The notes under the pieces are model-generated. The model was not told where the DNA came from. It did not search any database and was given only the letters and a program-made list of their open reading frames with translations. A stretch of DNA of 64,000 bases from NCBI GenBank assembly GCA_016200345.1, contig JACQEX010000030.1, positions 6,242-70,241 of the forward strand, in the 5' to 3' direction. Positions within the stretch are counted from its first letter, which is position 1. Each line of letters starts with the position of its first letter. The DNA is from Nitrospinota bacterium (GTDB lineage: Bacteria; Nitrospinota_A; UBA7883; JACRGQ01). This document shows, in pieces, positions 18,675 through 37,411 of the stretch. Position numbers and translations under genes: made by a program.

Positions 18675-19460
18675 TTAAAAAAAAGTTTTATATAGCGACG
18701 GGTTGCGATCCTGCGTCGTTGAAAATGTTTTTTTAAATTCCGAGACGCGACCCGCGTCCACGTCAAAAACGTCAAGCTCCCCGTCCGTCATTATGGGCGA
18801 AAGTTTTTCACCGTTTGGATTGATTATTTGCGTGCTTTTAACATACTCCAGACCGTTGCCGTCCGTTCCGACGCGGTTTACGCCGGCCACGAAAATCTGG
18901 TTTTCAATGGCCCTGGCCTTTAGCAGGGCGTTCCAATGGTCAATCCGCTTTGCCGGCCAGTTGGCGATGTTGATTATCAGTTCGCAGTTTTTGGCGAGCG
19001 CTCCGTAAATTTCCGGGAACCGTAGGTCGTAGCAAACCGTCAGCCCCACCGTCATGTCTCCAATCCGGGAAAAACATATTTTCTCCCCGCCGCTGAAGAC
19101 CTTGTCCTCGCCGGCAAAGGAAAACGGGTGTATCTTGGCGTATGTCCCGACGACCGCCCCGTTTGGGTCCAACATCACGCAATTATTAGTCGCCTTTTGT
19201 CCGTCCCGAAAAACAACGCCGAAAACAACGGCAATTTTAAATTCCGCCGAGAGTTTTTGAAAAAACTCCACGGTCTCTGACTCCCGCCCGTCCTCCGCCG
19301 TAGATTTAACGTTCATCGAAAAGGATGTCAGCGTCATTTCCGGGAAAACGACAAGCCCGGCGGATTGTTCCTTCGCCGTTTTAACGAAGGCGCGACACGC
19401 GTTCTTGTTGGCTTCCTTGTCTTCCCAGGCCTGGTTAAGCGAGACGAGCGCAACGCGCAT
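18675..19460 (-). CDS. Carbon-nitrogen hydrolase family protein (nitrilase/amidase superfamily)
   Basis: Glu (VVFPE), Lys (YAKIHPF) and Cys (VCYDLRFPE) catalytic triad pattern. Confidence 0.75.
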   Translation of the reverse strand: MRVALVSLNQAWEDKEANKNACRAFVKTAKEQSAGLVVFPEMTLTSFSMNVKSTAEDGRESETVEFFQKLSAEFKIAVVFGVVFRDGQKATNNCVMLDPNGAVVGTYAKIHPFSFAGEDKVFSGGEKICFSRIGDMTVGLTVCYDLRFPEIYGALAKNCELIINIANWPAKRIDHWNALLKARAIENQIFVAGVNRVGTDGNGLEYVKSTQIINPNGEKLSPIMTDGELDVFDVDAGRVSEFKKTFSTTQDRNPSLYKTFF

Positions 19461-32141: not shown

Positions 32142-34886
32142 TCAGGGCGCGACTAATTCCACAAAGGCAATTCTGCCTGGGGAATTTTTTAAAATCTTGA
32201 TTTTCCCCACGAAGGCCATATGCTCTATCCAACTGCTAAACCGCATCAATTTTTTATGCAACGACCCGTTGGGATCCTTCTCGAGAGTCCCCGTATTCAC
32301 GTCAATGATGATGTATCGAAAACCGGCGGACTTTAAAATACGGTATATCTCCTCGTCGCTTTCCCCGGCGCTCATGCAACTAAAATTGTCCAGCATCTGG
32401 TCGTCATAGAGACGTCTGTCGTTTTTGACGATAAAATAGCTTATAAAGGTGCCGATTCTATACACGTAGTTTTTCTCGGTCAGGGTTTCCGGGTGGTCGT
32501 TGACCTCCTTTGCTATGGACGAATAATCAGGCGCGAGGTTTTCGATGGTTTTGGCCTCGTCAAAGAGGCCGAATGCAAAGCCCGTCATGGACTTGTTGCC
32601 AAAGGTCTGGTTGCGAAAGGCCACAAAGGTTGTTAGCGACACAAAAATCAACACCCAGCTCACGAAGCGCACCGGGGCGGGGCTGTTTGCAATCAAGTAA
32701 TCCATAATCAGGGCAAACAGCAAAAAGCCGCCGATTCCGTACCATATTATGCCGTCCGAAACCAGCATCCAAAAAACCCACGACGCGGAGCCTAAAAAGA
32801 CGGCCAGGGACAAGAGGGGGTTGCGAATTTTAACCGAGGCGTACCAATAGACGGCAAGCAACATCGCGACCATCACCCCAATTTCCGCGGCAAACCCGGG
32901 GGAAAGGCTTATGGAGTTCAAATTGCCAAAAGGGTTTAACTTTATTCGCAAGGCCCAGAATATCCAAAATGAAAACCATACGAACACCGTCGCCCCAGCG
33001 GCGATGGTCTCGCCGCGAAACCAGATTGCCATCGCCTCTTTTTGCCGTTCGATCCACACCACCGGCCCAGCGGCGATGGTCCCGCCGCGAAACCAGATTG
33101 CCAGCCCTATCAACGCCGGCAGAATGGCAAGAAAAGTGTAGCCAATGTCTACCCAAAAACCGTGGGTGGTCGTGTTCATCGTGTCTTTCCAAGGCAAAGC
33201 GATTAATTTGTCCAGCCCCGAATCGTATCCCGCATACCTACCCGCCTCCTCCTTCAAGCCGGTCGGACTGACGCATTCCTCCGCCGTTTTGCCCGATGTG
33301 TGCAAATCCGGGCTTAAAGAATTGGCGTTTGCCCCCTTCAACATGGCACTCAAATGAAAGTTTTTTGCCTGAAACCCATTGGAAACGGCCCAAGGCGCAA
33401 AGGTCAGGGCGGACAGGCCGACAAAAATCCCAAAACGCAGGCCAAATTCCAAAACCCTGGACTTGGCGCGCGCCATGGCAACAGCCCCGATGACGACGGC
33501 TAACAGGGCGCAGTAGCGGGAAAGCGTCGCGATTTGCGCATCGTCCAAAATGCCGTCCAGCCGAAGGGTGCCGCTTTTCAAGGTGACAAAAATGAACGCC
33601 AGAAAAAACGCCGCGGCTCCGGTGCGTCCAAGGTAAATTCCGGCAATGGCGACAGCCATGGGAAAAATTAAAAACGTGGCGGAAAATTTTATTCCAAAGG
33701 AGAAACCGGCAAACAGAGAGGCCAAAACGAGCCATTCAAGCTCGATCTTTTTCGCCCTGGTCGCCTCAACGTCGGGGGTCGCCCCGACCAAAGGCGCTTC
33801 TTTTGAAACCCTTTCGCGCCATTCAAAAAAGCAATAGACTGAAAGGGCCAGAAAAAAGAGCAACGTCGGGTCGGTCTTCATGTCGGTGGCCGACTGCCAC
33901 ATAAGCATCGGGGTCAGGTAGAGCACCGTGGCCGCGGTAATTCCCACCTTGTCAGAGAAAAAGCGACGGCCGATCGCCACGATGGCCAAAACGGCGCATA
34001 CGCCGCCGAAGTACGAGAGATACAGCGCGATGGTCGCGTTGTCGAAAAGCAGAAAACCAAGCGAAATGATGGGGAAATAGTTAAAGCTCCTTCCCCCGCT
34101 CAGAAGAAAATGGTATTGCGAAATAAGCTTGGGAATATTTATGTACACACCCATGTCGTCCCATCCCAGCGGTATCGGGCGAATCAGGTCGAAGAAATTC
34201 AGCGCAAAGACGAAAGTAAGGAACAAGAACAGGTATTTGCGCGGGGAAAACACCCTACTTCTAATTTGAATTTTATGGGAGACAAGCCGGCCCCACCAGG
34301 CGAAGGCCGTTCTCCACCGCCAGACCAAGACCGCGATGACGGCGAACCACACCACCGGGGTGTAAAGCAGTTGCGCGTGGCCGACCACGAACATCCCGGC
34401 TACGGTCGTCATCATCCCGGTTCCAATCGAAAACAGCGAGTCTTCCAACATGGCGTCGAAAGCGAGCTTTCCAAGCACGGCCTTTCCCTGCACGTAGAAG
34501 AAGGTTGCGAAAAACAGCAGGCCGAGGGTCATGGCGGTAAACCAAAACATCACGTTTAATTCCGCGGTAAAGACGTCCACCTTGTCCGCGAGGCCGCTTT
34601 TAGCGAGATAATACGAGGAAATCCACACCACGAGCGCCCCGAAAAAAACCAACACCCAAAGCGGCGTGACGTTAAACTTCCACTCGTCCTTGTCGCGATA
34701 GAAATACTGAACCAAATCAAGGGCAAAAAACAGCCCGACGCACATCGCCAGCATGCTCGTCGTCGGCTTAAACTCCTTCAGATTTGCCATGTGCTCCGGA
34801 TGGGAGATGAAATACTGCTGTATGACGTAGCCGGCCCAACTAAGGGCCAACAGGGAAAAAATTACCGAGAAAATCTTTCTTTGCAT
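32142..34886 (-). CDS. Large polytopic membrane protein, GT-C-like glycosyltransferase fold (tentative)
   Basis: 914 aa, more than 20 predicted TM segments, large loop regions. Contains an internal 24-aa tandem duplication. Confidence 0.55.
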   Translation of the reverse strand: MQRKIFSVIFSLLALSWAGYVIQQYFISHPEHMANLKEFKPTTSMLAMCVGLFFALDLVQYFYRDKDEWKFNVTPLWVLVFFGALVVWISSYYLAKSGLADKVDVFTAELNVMFWFTAMTLGLLFFATFFYVQGKAVLGKLAFDAMLEDSLFSIGTGMMTTVAGMFVVGHAQLLYTPVVWFAVIAVLVWRWRTAFAWWGRLVSHKIQIRSRVFSPRKYLFLFLTFVFALNFFDLIRPIPLGWDDMGVYINIPKLISQYHFLLSGGRSFNYFPIISLGFLLFDNATIALYLSYFGGVCAVLAIVAIGRRFFSDKVGITAATVLYLTPMLMWQSATDMKTDPTLLFFLALSVYCFFEWRERVSKEAPLVGATPDVEATRAKKIELEWLVLASLFAGFSFGIKFSATFLIFPMAVAIAGIYLGRTGAAAFFLAFIFVTLKSGTLRLDGILDDAQIATLSRYCALLAVVIGAVAMARAKSRVLEFGLRFGIFVGLSALTFAPWAVSNGFQAKNFHLSAMLKGANANSLSPDLHTSGKTAEECVSPTGLKEEAGRYAGYDSGLDKLIALPWKDTMNTTTHGFWVDIGYTFLAILPALIGLAIWFRGGTIAAGPVVWIERQKEAMAIWFRGETIAAGATVFVWFSFWIFWALRIKLNPFGNLNSISLSPGFAAEIGVMVAMLLAVYWYASVKIRNPLLSLAVFLGSASWVFWMLVSDGIIWYGIGGFLLFALIMDYLIANSPAPVRFVSWVLIFVSLTTFVAFRNQTFGNKSMTGFAFGLFDEAKTIENLAPDYSSIAKEVNDHPETLTEKNYVYRIGTFISYFIVKNDRRLYDDQMLDNFSCMSAGESDEEIYRILKSAGFRYIIIDVNTGTLEKDPNGSLHKKLMRFSSWIEHMAFVGKIKILKNSPGRIAFVELVAP

Positions 34887-34977
34887 CGCGTAAGCTTACC
34901 GCACTTTACGCGAAGAAAAAAGGGAGCGAGAAAAAAAAATCGGCGTTGACTTGGGGCCGCGAACATGGCATCATGAT

Positions 34978-34996
34978 GATAATGATTATCATTATC
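34978..34996. promoter_or_regulatory. Fur box (GATAATGATTATCATTATC)
   Basis: 18/19 match to the classical Fur consensus GATAATGATAATCATTATC and perfectly palindromic. Lies in the divergent region between the 32142..34886 (-) gene and the fur-family gene, with a TTGACT -35-like hexamer at 34946. Confidence 0.65.
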
Positions 34997-35024
34997 CAGA
35001 GAAGACGTGACCGATAGCCAGCCG

Positions 35025-35438
35025 ATGGCGGCTTTTAGGCTCCACATCGCCAAAAAGGGGCTTCGCCACACCAAGCAGAGAGAGGAAATCCTTTCAGCCC
35101 TTTTCTCGTCCAAAAAACACGTCACGGCGGAGGAGCTTTTCGATATCCTCAGGTCAAAGGTGGCCGGCATCGGCTATGCCACGGTGCAAAGAAACCTGAA
35201 CCTTTTGCGGGAGTGCGGACTGGCCGAGGAGGTAAAAATTGGCAACCAAAAGGCCCGCTACGAGCCGAAACGCGGTAAGGAACACCACGACCACCTCATA
35301 TGCCTTAAGTGCGGAAGGTTCATAGAGGTAAACGACCCGAGGCTGGAAAAACTACAGGACGGGCTGGCGAAGGCAAACGGCTTTGCGCCGCTAAGACACA
35401 AACTGGAAATATACGGAACCTGCGCCAAGTGCGCATAA
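35025..35438 (+). CDS. Fur-family transcriptional regulator (Fur/Zur/PerR)
   Basis: HTKQREEIL...HHDHLICLKCGRFIEV...CAKC: DNA-binding helix, metal-site HHxH and two CxxC pairs. Alternative GTG start at 35007. Confidence 0.8.
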   Translation: MAAFRLHIAKKGLRHTKQREEILSALFSSKKHVTAEELFDILRSKVAGIGYATVQRNLNLLRECGLAEEVKIGNQKARYEPKRGKEHHDHLICLKCGRFIEVNDPRLEKLQDGLAKANGFAPLRHKLEIYGTCAKCA

Positions 35439-35445
35439 AAGAGGG

Positions 35446-36537
35446 GTGGGAATGAGTTATTCGAATCTGCTGTTACTGGGCGCAATCGCCGGCTTTACAA
35501 TTTTCCTCGGCCTTCCCGTGGCGATGCTGACGACACGCCCGAAATTCCGCGCGTTCATGACCGCCCTTTCCGCAGGCGTTCTCATTTTCCTGCTGGTCGA
35601 GATATCCAACAAGTCGTTCGAGATTGTCGAGGAGGCGGTGAAAAGTTATTTTGTCGGCCAGTCCGGCCCGGCGCCAACCGCGCTTTGCCTTATTTTCTTC
35701 CTTGGGTTCACCGCCGGAATGTTCGGTCTGACCTTCTTTGAGGAAAAATTTGTCGGAACCGCCAAGGACTCCCCGGAAAAAAACAGCTCCAAATCCCTGT
35801 CAATGATGATAGCCATCGGCATAGGCCTGCACAATTTCGGCGAAGGACTTGCCATCGGCCAGGAATACGTCAGCGGCGCGATATCCCTCGCATACCTCCT
35901 TATAGCTGGCTTTGCGCTCCATAACGCGACCGAGGGATTCGGCATCGCGGCGCCGCTAAGGATGGAAAAGGTGGATTGGAAATTTTTGGGCCTTGCCGGC
36001 CTTGTTGGCGGCGGCCCGACGTTCGTTGGCGTTCTGGTCGGCTCCGTTTACTACTCGCGCCAGTTGGAACTGCTGGCTCTTTCCCTCGCCGCCGGTAGCA
36101 TCCTTTACGTGGTCGGGGAGCTGTTGCACCTCGGAAAAGTGCACGGACACCATAGAACGGTCATGGTCGGACTCCTGACCGGATTTTTCATCTCGTTTGC
36201 CTCCGACGCGTTCATAGAGGTCGGCACGGCGGTCACCGCCAATAAAAAGGTTCCGTCAAAGATTTATCAAGTCGAGGCCTCTGAATTCAAATTCACCCCT
36301 TCGCATTTTGAGGCGGTCCAGGGGGAGACTCTGCGGTTTGAGATTACTAACAAGGGGACGGAGAACCACGAGTTTGAAATGCCGGATTTAAAAACGGAGG
36401 TCGTGCTCACTCCGGGCGCCAACGCCGTCGTTACCGTGCCCGACCTGAAAGTTGGCGAGTACCTTATTAGGTGCGACCTGCCCGGACACCTTGAGCACGG
36501 GATGAAGGGCGAGTTGGTGGTCAAACCTAAAATTTAA
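35446..36537 (+). CDS. ZIP-family metal permease fused to a C-terminal cupredoxin-like domain
   Basis: ZIP signature helices (GLHNFGEGLAIG, HNATEGF) over residues 1-250. The C-terminal ~100 aa (TPSHFEAV...YLIRCDLPGHLEHGM) show a cupredoxin Cys-His...His-Met-like pattern. Confidence 0.65.
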   Translation: MGMSYSNLLLLGAIAGFTIFLGLPVAMLTTRPKFRAFMTALSAGVLIFLLVEISNKSFEIVEEAVKSYFVGQSGPAPTALCLIFFLGFTAGMFGLTFFEEKFVGTAKDSPEKNSSKSLSMMIAIGIGLHNFGEGLAIGQEYVSGAISLAYLLIAGFALHNATEGFGIAAPLRMEKVDWKFLGLAGLVGGGPTFVGVLVGSVYYSRQLELLALSLAAGSILYVVGELLHLGKVHGHHRTVMVGLLTGFFISFASDAFIEVGTAVTANKKVPSKIYQVEASEFKFTPSHFEAVQGETLRFEITNKGTENHEFEMPDLKTEVVLTPGANAVVTVPDLKVGEYLIRCDLPGHLEHGMKGELVVKPKI

Positions 36538-36549
36538 AGGTGTGCTAAT

Positions 36550-37047
36550 ATGGGAACCATGAGGCAACTAGTGTTTTTACTTCTTCTTTTGTCGGCCGCC
36601 CCGGCTTTTGCCGTGGAGGAGATACCGGCCACCAAGGCGGTAAAGGACGCGCTGTACCAGAATCTGACGTCCAACCTTGCCTGCCGTTGCGGGTGCGGAA
36701 CAACCCTGAAAACCTGCCCGCACGAGACCTGCTCCTTCGCAATCCCGGCAAGAAAAGAGATACGCGGTTTTATTGACCAGGGACTCGGACGCGAGGAGAT
36801 AAAGGCTAAAATGGTCTCCCTCCACGGCGAGGCGATACTAGCCCAGCCGACGTTCGCGGGATTCAACGTGCTGGGATGGGTGACCCCGTTTGTAGGCATT
36901 TTGATTTTCGGATATTTGGTGGCGTTAACCGTCAGGCGATGGACCTCCCAAAGGGTGACGGCGACCGGCAAAACGGAGACGACACAAAGGTCAGCCGACC
37001 CGTATTTGGAAAAAATGCGCGAAGAGCTTAAAAAATTCGAGGAATGA
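36550..37047 (+). CDS. CcmH/NrfF-family thiol-disulfide protein (signal peptide, Cys-rich motif, C-terminal TM)
   Basis: Signal peptide, LACRCGCGTTLKTCPHETC motif, the conserved EI...MV..HGE.IL..P block of CcmH, then a TM helix. Confidence 0.55.
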   Translation: MGTMRQLVFLLLLLSAAPAFAVEEIPATKAVKDALYQNLTSNLACRCGCGTTLKTCPHETCSFAIPARKEIRGFIDQGLGREEIKAKMVSLHGEAILAQPTFAGFNVLGWVTPFVGILIFGYLVALTVRRWTSQRVTATGKTETTQRSADPYLEKMREELKKFEE

Positions 37048-37048
37048 G

Positions 37049-37411
37049 ATGATTGGCGTCGAGATTTTATTGGTTCTGGTCGTAATGACGGCTATAGGCT
37101 ACCCTCTTTTTGTCCAGCCAAAGGCGGTCGAGGTGACCGAGGACGGCGACGAATACCACAGGCTTGTATCCGCCAAGGAGTCGGCCTTTGTAGCGCTTAG
37201 GGACTTGGAATTTGACTTTAAAACCGGAAAGTTGGACGAGGAGGACTACGACCAGCTTAAGAGCCGGTACGAAAGCGAGGCGGTGGCCGTCCTAAAGGAA
37301 ATTGACGCGAATCAAAAACCGACCGACGCCATTTTTTGCACGTCCTGCGGCGCCAAGGCGGAAGCAAAGGACAAGTTTTGCCGAAGTTGCGGCTCGCACA
37401 TCCCAAAATAA
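37049..37411 (+). CDS. Small membrane protein with C-terminal zinc-ribbon (CxxC...CxxC)
   Basis: N-terminal TM helix plus CTSCG...CRSCG. Start is 2 nt after the upstream stop. Confidence 0.45.
   Translation: MIGVEILLVLVVMTAIGYPLFVQPKAVEVTEDGDEYHRLVSAKESAFVALRDLEFDFKTGKLDEEDYDQLKSRYESEAVAVLKEIDANQKPTDAIFCTSCGAKAEAKDKFCRSCGSHIPK

Follow-up and report, generated by a model that had tools for sequence, protein, structure and literature searches.

The stretch analysed here, 64,000 nucleotides of Nitrospinota contig JACQEX010000030.1 (positions 6,242 to 70,241; hereafter the window), carries a 19-bp palindrome, GATAATGATTATCATTATC, at exactly 34978-34996, just ahead of a gene for a Fur-family repressor (fur, 35007..35438, plus strand, GTG start, 143 aa). 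The next gene encodes a ZIP permease fused to a cupredoxin domain (35452..36537, plus strand). This candidate Fur box is very probably the operator of an iron-responsive Fur encoded just downstream, which would act by promoter occlusion and negative autoregulation, and the predicted iron-dependent autorepression of fur together with the ZIP-cupredoxin gene is well supported by the sequence comparisons described below. As an operator the site is canonical, and the operon follows a known design; the unusual part is the ZIP-cupredoxin cargo.

Read directly from the window, the minus strand of the box is GATAATGATAATCATTATC and agrees with the classical Fur consensus at 19 of 19 positions; the plus strand agrees at 18, the sole mismatch being the unpaired central base. 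The box also equals the consensus in the form that carries a central N, GATAATGATNATCATTATC, as quoted in PMC545781. A preliminary description of this DNA had reported a palindromic near-consensus Fur box at these positions, and its count of 18/19 proves conservative. The palindrome is a perfect 9-1-9 inverted repeat. Within the same region, a perfect 7-1-7 core of the Bacillus type, TGATAATgATTATCA (34977-34991, 0 mismatches), is overlapped by a second 7-1-7 unit, TGATTATCATTATCC (34983-34997, 2 mismatches); the core is the presumed site of one Fur dimer and the second unit that of another on the opposite face of the DNA. With these two overlapping units, the box conforms to the TGATAATnATTATCA-type inverted repeat. 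A weaker 19-bp copy, shifted by one hexamer, lies at 34972-34990 (3 mismatches). The window has a G+C content of 53%, and the box forms an A+T island in it.

Such a site is statistically rare. When the 64-kb window was shuffled 100 times with its dinucleotide composition preserved, no shuffle contained a site with three or fewer mismatches, and our own composition-based estimate of the exact matches expected in 64 kb is about 2e-7. The preliminary description had proposed a scan for further copies of the box, which was run on the window and on 1.25 Mb of related loci. The window yielded no other credible copy: the remaining 7-1-7 matches, at 18965, 42496 and 47040, each have 3 mismatches, lie inside open reading frames (ORFs) and are at chance level (1.3 expected). 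The related loci yielded nine sites with three or fewer mismatches, all of which precede fur, feoB or ZIP genes, with none elsewhere.

The box is situated in a 120-bp spacer between the Fur-family gene on the plus strand and a gene for a 914-aa membrane protein on the minus strand (32142..34886), flanking genes that were correctly described at the outset. A promoter scan predicted a TG-extended, sigma-70-like promoter, TTGACT-17-CATCAT, on the plus strand at 34946-34974, with the -35 hexamer TTGACT at 34946..34951 and the -10 hexamer CATCAT at 34969..34974. The box starts 3 bases past the predicted -10 hexamer and 29 nt ahead of the fur start codon, ends 10 nt ahead of the GTG, and covers the expected transcription start, which the predicted promoter would place near 34981-34983. 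Three near-identical contigs, from sequencing runs SRR12113409-11, share this locus. Their differences from the window, a 4-nt indel and several substitutions, all fall upstream of the -35 hexamer, toward the 914-aa gene, and from the -35 hexamer to the fur start, box included, there is no difference. The spacer variation is located at window positions 34925-34940, which read AAAAAAGGGAGCGAGAAAAAAAAA in the window and AAAAAAGTGTGGCAAAAAAA in the variants (L001 1518-1535, L002, L003), next to a run of A.

To assess conservation, we compared independent loci whose Fur orthologue is 64-74% identical. In all seven, a conserved TTGAC -35 element is followed by a box that departs from the consensus at no more than three positions and is placed at -29 to -33, and in every independent orthologous locus the box directly follows the -10 element. 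Locus L173 has the identical 19-mer at -29. Two mismatches are found in L171 (GATACTAATTATCATTATC, -33) and L178 (GATAATTAATATCATTATC, -33), and three in L172 (GATACTAAATATCATTATC, -30), L174/175 (GATAACGGATATCATTATC, -31, counted in L174) and L166 (GAGATAGATTATCATTATC, -32). In the orthologous loci TATCAT, TAATAT, TACTAT or TTATAAT takes the -10 place, immediately before the box. An alignment of six upstream regions revealed that TATCATTATC and the left-half pattern T..TGA.A are invariant and that the flanks diverge; TTGAC is common to five of the six regions as aligned, and L166 has TTGAC too. This pattern of conservation at a fixed position is the sequence signature expected of a functional operator.

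The regulator matches PF01475, a fold made of a winged-helix DNA-binding domain and a dimerisation domain, over its full length (E 3.7e-34, 1-121/121). Among NCBIfam models, three Fur equivalogs rank at the top (97, 88 and 83 bits), followed by PerR (73) and Zur (46). Because no equivalog cut-off was reached, 'Fur family' is the only permissible name for the protein, with Fur as the best subfamily. Its nearest PDB structures are Campylobacter jejuni Fur (4ets/6d57, 1e-26) and Helicobacter pylori Fur (2xig, 2e-23); next in the ranking are B. subtilis PerR (1e-22), Streptomyces Nur, Magnetospirillum Fur and M. tuberculosis Zur, and E. coli Zur is far off (5e-8). Several residues are invariant in 120 orthologues, namely the Cys4 site (C99, C102, C139, C142), H38, E86, H93-H94-D95-H96, E107, E114, H131 and R62 of the recognition helix. 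The Fur-type ligand set is complete, comprising a structural Cys4 site and regulatory His and Glu residues, with Glu and not Asp at the PerR-type positions; in terms of the HpFur and CjFur structures, the conserved His and Glu residues are assigned to the S2 and S3 sites. Glu instead of Asp at two acidic ligand positions and Arg instead of Asn in the recognition helix are traits of Fur and not of PerR, and they are in keeping with the G that each half-site has at position 2, which marks a Fur box and not a PerR box. Codon 61 (window 35187-35189) specifies His in 98, Gln in 16 (the window included) and Tyr in 3 of the 120 orthologues; characterised Furs have Tyr here (ATVYR), and the operator is still classical.

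The strongest argument for the predicted identity of the regulator as Fur is the feoB operon context of its orthologues. In L171, L172, L174/175 and L178, the orthologue is the first gene of a cluster composed of fur, feoB, a small ORF and a DtxR-like gene encoding Fe_dep_repr_C and FeoA domains. A second Fur box, TGATAATGAATATCA (also given as TGATAATGAATATCAATAT), is present between fur and feoB in L171 (4451-4470), L174 (4450-4469) and L175 (1368-1387), where feoB has its own putative Fur-controlled promoter; this second box is missing from the fur-feoB spacer in L172 and L178. The ZIP-linked Furs of the window, L173 and L166 share 64-74% identity with one another and 64-69% with the feoB-linked Furs. 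Since the ZIP-linked proteins are no closer mutually than to the feoB-linked ones, a single orthologous regulator heads alternative transporter genes. Neither feoB nor a DtxR-like gene was found in the 64-kb window, nor was a second Fur-family gene.

The transporter gene of the window follows fur after 13 nt, a junction that includes a ribosome-binding site, GAGGGG. Its likely start is the ATG at 35452, the listed ORF starting at a GTG at 35446. The product combines a Zip domain (PF02535, 44.2 bits against a cut-off of 35.1) and a C-terminal Cupredoxin_1 domain (PF13473, E 6e-18), which comes after 8 predicted transmembrane segments; standard ZIP topology places this domain in the periplasm. 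Two HNxxEG motifs (H129-N130..E133-G134 and H159-N160..E163-G164) and the copper ligands H308, C343, H348 and M353 do not vary among 21 fusions of 42-78% identity. By its ligands and its modelled fold, the C-terminal domain qualifies as a type-1 blue cupredoxin, and copper binding is predicted. In an AlphaFold (AF2) model of the protein (pLDDT 85.5), the membrane part matches BbZIP (5tsa, 7z6m; Foldseek prob 1.00), and the cupredoxin part aligns with the Cu-bound B. anthracis Cupredoxin_1 protein 4hcf (TM-score 0.93) and with Brucella FtrB 8vuk (TM-score 0.85). NCBIfam returned a ZupT match for the ZIP part and a weak match of the cupredoxin domain to the EfeO model.

The fur-ZIP arrangement with a box recurs in L173 and L166, and the ZIP-cupredoxin gene of L006, which has no adjoining fur, is immediately preceded by a TTGACA-17-TATCAT promoter with a box inside it; the linkage of the ZIP-cupredoxin to Fur is thus seen independently. 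The idea that a box precedes all ZIP-cupredoxin genes was rejected, as it is absent upstream of the gene in seven loci (L004, L005, L164, L168, L170, L091 and L108). No obvious regulator was found beside the gene in L004, L168 and L170. Two scans of the collection with the ZIP-cupredoxin alignment returned mostly plain ZIP genes, the patterns having been drawn from ZIP motifs, and about six loci with full fusions. As a family, PF02535 plus PF13473 proteins form more than 40 clusters at 90% identity, from Nitrospinota, Thermodesulfobacteriota and 'Deltaproteobacteria' metagenome-assembled genomes (MAGs). The ZIP-cupredoxin is a widespread and uncharacterised family, represented here by the window, L004, L005, L006, L084, L091, L108, L164, L166, L168 and L170. 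A literature search found nothing specific to ZIP-cupredoxin fusions or to Nitrospina Fur. As a separate observation, L166 has a two-domain multicopper-oxidase-like gene (1655-2614) about 2 kb from its fur-ZIP-cupredoxin genes, which recalls the multicopper oxidase (MCO)-ZIP pairs of ammonia-oxidising archaea (PMC7785015).

Taken together, we infer a simple iron switch. With enough iron in the cell, Fur would be loaded with Fe2+, and its dimers, of which there are probably two, would bind the overlapping 7-1-7 units and cover the -10 hexamer, the transcription start and the DNA beyond it to about +15. Bound Fur would block RNA polymerase and so repress fur and the tightly linked ZIP-cupredoxin gene, and the CcmH-like and zinc-ribbon genes that follow, possibly with later genes, would be repressed through read-through. 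When iron is scarce, Fur would lose its metal and leave the DNA, the operon would be transcribed, and derepression would supply a metal importer in the position that FeoB holds in sister lineages. Negative autoregulation would limit the level of Fur.

Several observations weigh against this interpretation. The predicted -10 hexamer, CATCAT, is weak, and the regulator scores below all NCBIfam cut-offs (146-220 for the Fur equivalogs), with BsPerR and Nur close behind Fur in the PDB ranking. Gln stands in its recognition helix, and His in that of most clade members, where characterised Furs have Tyr. ZIP proteins, moreover, are best known as zinc importers. In other lineages, ZIP-cupredoxin genes lie behind ArsR/SmtB-type genes (L005, L108) or a two-component system (L164), and that of L084 lies behind a Fur paralogue of 32% identity with the palindrome TTGCGA-N5-TCGCAA. 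Because the box is missing or other regulators are found in those lineages, Fur control of the ZIP-cupredoxin is lineage-specific.

An extension that does not exclude Fur autorepression is that the box is a bidirectional operator, which would also repress the divergent 914-aa GT-C/PMT_2-like gene and tie envelope glycosylation to iron. The product of that gene has a sub-threshold PMT_2 match. The box does lie inside the spacer that the two genes share, and weak minus-strand hexamer pairs (8/12) overlap it. The standard scan, however, detected no sigma-70-like promoter on the minus strand, relaxed rules giving 8/12 at most, and 92 bp separate the box from the ATG at 34886 with which the 914-aa gene begins. 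Each relative also has a different gene on that side: L173, whose box is identical, has a co-directional CapD-like gene, L166 has a gene for a sigma-54 activator, and L171, L172 and L178 have DUF488, TPR and FliE genes. Finally, the strain-variant indel and substitutions sit in that half of the spacer which adjoins the 914-aa gene, and the fur promoter and box are invariant. Bidirectional control is accordingly unlikely, and the coupling of the membrane glycosyltransferase to iron status suggested in the preliminary description finds no support, given the lack of a minus-strand promoter, the differing neighbours and the variable half of the spacer.

Two further features of this side of the locus were noted. 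A palindrome, CGCGTAA-N12-TTACGCG (window 34887-34912), abuts the ATG of the 914-aa gene, which has no obvious Shine-Dalgarno sequence; as a candidate RNA structure the palindrome was rejected, its fold being no better than that of shuffled sequences (z = -0.55). Inside the 914-aa gene, a 72-bp tandem duplication (window 32984-33103; 48-nt core, 92% identical) gives rise to a repeated AIWFRG(G/E)TIAAG peptide. The duplication could be real or an assembly artefact.

Slightly less probable again is that the regulator is a Zur, Mur, Nur or PerR, sensing zinc, manganese, nickel or peroxide, respectively, instead of iron, and that the operon serves the uptake of zinc or another metal. ZIP is the canonical zinc-importer family, as the Pfam name and the ZupT match recall. 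Distant Fur paralogues adjoin plain ZIP genes in L010 and L094 and a ZIP-cupredoxin gene in L084, each with a different palindrome; the PerR and Nur structures score only 4-5 orders of magnitude behind Fur, and the regulator reaches none of the NCBIfam equivalog cut-offs. The operator itself speaks for Fur: it matches the Fur consensus exactly and has G at position 2 of each half-site, the base by which Fur boxes differ from the PerR box, TTATAAT, and the Bacillus Zur box, TCGTAAT (PMC545781). Zur scores far lower than Fur, with 46 against 97 bits and 5e-8 (EcZur) against 1e-26 (CjFur), the closest orthologues head feoB operons with the same box, and Glu, not Asp, is invariant at the PerR-type ligand positions. 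The paralogues beside plain ZIP genes are only 32-43% identical and have other palindromes, and so constitute a separate group. A Zur or PerR recognising a different motif, which the preliminary description had named as the outcome that would overturn it, is thus not what the Fur-type scores and residues, the exact Fur box and the feoB contexts indicate. The plain ZIP genes merit mention in their own right. On Elusimicrobia/Omnitrophota-type contigs (L010 1560-1600; L094 3395-3420), they lie behind a Fur paralogue of 43% identity. A different palindrome, TATATTGAAAnnnnnTTTCAA(C/T)AAGAAAA, is conserved upstream of this paralogue and probably serves as operator for a further sensor of the Fur family, e.g. 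Zur.

It is barely credible that the palindrome acts as a hairpin in the 5' untranslated region, affecting stability or translation, or is a functionless chance product of A+T-rich DNA: the possible 8-bp A-U-rich transcript hairpin (-6.2 kcal/mol, z = -2.1) is weak, excludes the ribosome-binding site and the start codon, would be cut short by a transcription start at the place implied by the -10 hexamer, and has no Rfam match, the orthologues keep the consensus match and not the arm pairing (the boxes of L171, L172 and L174 are imperfect palindromes), and both the shuffles and the conserved, fixed position rule out chance.

Regarding the extent of the operon controlled by Fur, no credible terminator was detected between fur and a B12-radical SAM gene further downstream, and the 13-, 12- and 1-nt junctions come with ribosome-binding sites. 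The ZIP-cupredoxin gene is followed after 12 nt, which include AAGGTG, by a gene for a CcmH-like protein (36550..37047, plus strand); a gene for a membrane-anchored zinc-ribbon protein (37049..37411, plus strand; Zn_Ribbon_1, N-terminal transmembrane segment) comes 1 nt later and the B12-radical SAM gene another 18 nt on. The CcmH-like protein (PF03918, E 5.9e-17, 61.7 bits against a cut-off of 25) has a signal peptide, a periplasmic Cys-rich domain and one transmembrane segment. The motif LACRCGCG...C.H..C replaces the LRCxxC active site and is kept in the L164 orthologue; since the CxxC of CcmH is missing, only the label 'CcmH-like' is used. The conserved cluster reads CRCGCGTTLKTCPHExC. The protein may be a periplasmic metal-binding or redox protein, and only 17 homologues were found, the named ones all from Nitrospinae.

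The CcmH-like and zinc-ribbon genes travel as a pair specific to Nitrospinae, which is kept in L164 (6111-7024), L176 (5001-5866) and L177 (5001-5890), and the zinc-ribbon gene is always paired. In L176 and L177, the pair stands alone, without ZIP or fur; no Fur box was found before it and no ccm genes adjoin the CcmH-like gene in these two loci. L176 has the flanks of L164 (dnaB, alr; accA, RND) minus the kinase-regulator-ZIP insert. Because the pair occurs elsewhere alone and without a box, its control by iron is at most a consequence of read-through, by which alone the two genes probably belong to the regulated unit. In the preliminary description, the box was expected to govern the fur-like gene and the genes downstream of it. 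For fur and the ZIP-cupredoxin gene this is strongly supported, on the grounds of promoter position, conservation in 7/7 loci, the short junction and the Fur-type residues and contexts of the regulator; for the CcmH-like and zinc-ribbon genes it is plausible through read-through only, given the 12- and 1-nt gaps and the lack of a terminator, and it is not conserved.

The cargo of the operon invites a more tentative proposal. Fur control, the substitution for feoB and the FtrB/EfeO-like domain together suggest that the ZIP-cupredoxin under Fur might be an undescribed kind of copper-assisted iron importer, replacing FeoB in the fur operon of some Nitrospinota; we regard this as possible, though on balance doubtful. 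In such an importer, with iron as the putative substrate, the periplasmic type-1 copper domain would be tethered to the mouth of the ZIP permease and would bring iron into the redox state needed for transport. It might, for example, reduce Fe3+ to Fe2+, by analogy with plant FRO2/IRT1, or capture or oxidise Fe2+, by analogy with FtrB and EfeO. The Nitrospinae-specific CcmH-like protein with its Cys cluster might then serve as an electron or metal donor.

The canonical Fur operator and the autoregulated design of fur plus an Fe2+ importer are hereby extended to Nitrospinota, a phylum of marine nitrite oxidisers in which, to our knowledge, metal regulation has hardly been studied. The box provides a ready motif for iron-regulon scans of Nitrospinota genomes. 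Its presence, the swap in the position of feoB and the likeness to FtrB and EfeO give a testable assignment of ZIP-cupredoxin fusions to iron acquisition; if the assignment is true, ZIP permease and copper redox chemistry are joined in a new combination.

Compared with the classical Fur box of E. coli and B. subtilis (GATAATGATAATCATTATC, with 7-1-7 units of the form TGATAATnATTATCA), the site of the window has the same sequence: its minus strand agrees at 19/19 positions and a 7-1-7 unit in it is perfect. If the predicted promoter is right, the site would also overlap the -10/+1 region of an iron-related promoter, the classical geometry of occlusion. It differs in its host, a Nitrospinota MAG, and in the Gln/His that stands for Tyr before the recognition-helix Arg of the regulator. 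The box is of the E. coli type and not the delta-proteobacterial variant WTGAAAATNATTTTCAW (PMC545781). In Geobacter and Desulfuromonas, FUR sites were reported at -30, -31 and -34 before fur, in fur-feoB1-R clusters where R is DtxR-like (Rodionov et al. 2004, PMC545781 Table 3). The window shares with these clusters a FUR site about 30 nt before fur (-29 here) and an importer gene in the next position, and the nearest orthologues of its Fur have that very fur-feoB-DtxR-like arrangement; the window itself lacks feoB and the DtxR-like gene and has the ZIP-cupredoxin in the place of feoB.

The transporter has partial counterparts in known copper-linked systems. FtrB is the periplasmic ferroxidase of the Fe2+ importer FtrABCD and has an Asp/His Cup-II copper site (PMC11966278). 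The Cupredoxin_1 domain and its periplasmic location are shared with FtrB and with the N-terminal Cup domain of EfeO in EfeUOB, and here the domain is linked to a Fur box. In contrast to FtrABCD and EfeUOB, the permease is of the ZIP and not the Ftr1/EfeU type, permease and cupredoxin are fused, and no P19, polyferredoxin or peroxidase partner is present; the predicted copper site is type-1 His-Cys-His-Met, unlike the Asp/His Cup-II site of FtrB. In ammonia-oxidising archaea, MCO and ZIP permease genes occur in pairs, for which copper has been proposed as the substrate and a Fet3p-like scheme has been discussed (PMC7785015). These pairs likewise couple a copper redox protein to a ZIP of the same subfamily, the thaumarchaeal ZIPs being 40-43% identical to that of the window; the archaeal multicopper oxidase is a separate protein and has no Fur box, whereas the Nitrospinota locus presents a fused, single-domain cupredoxin behind a predicted Fur operator.

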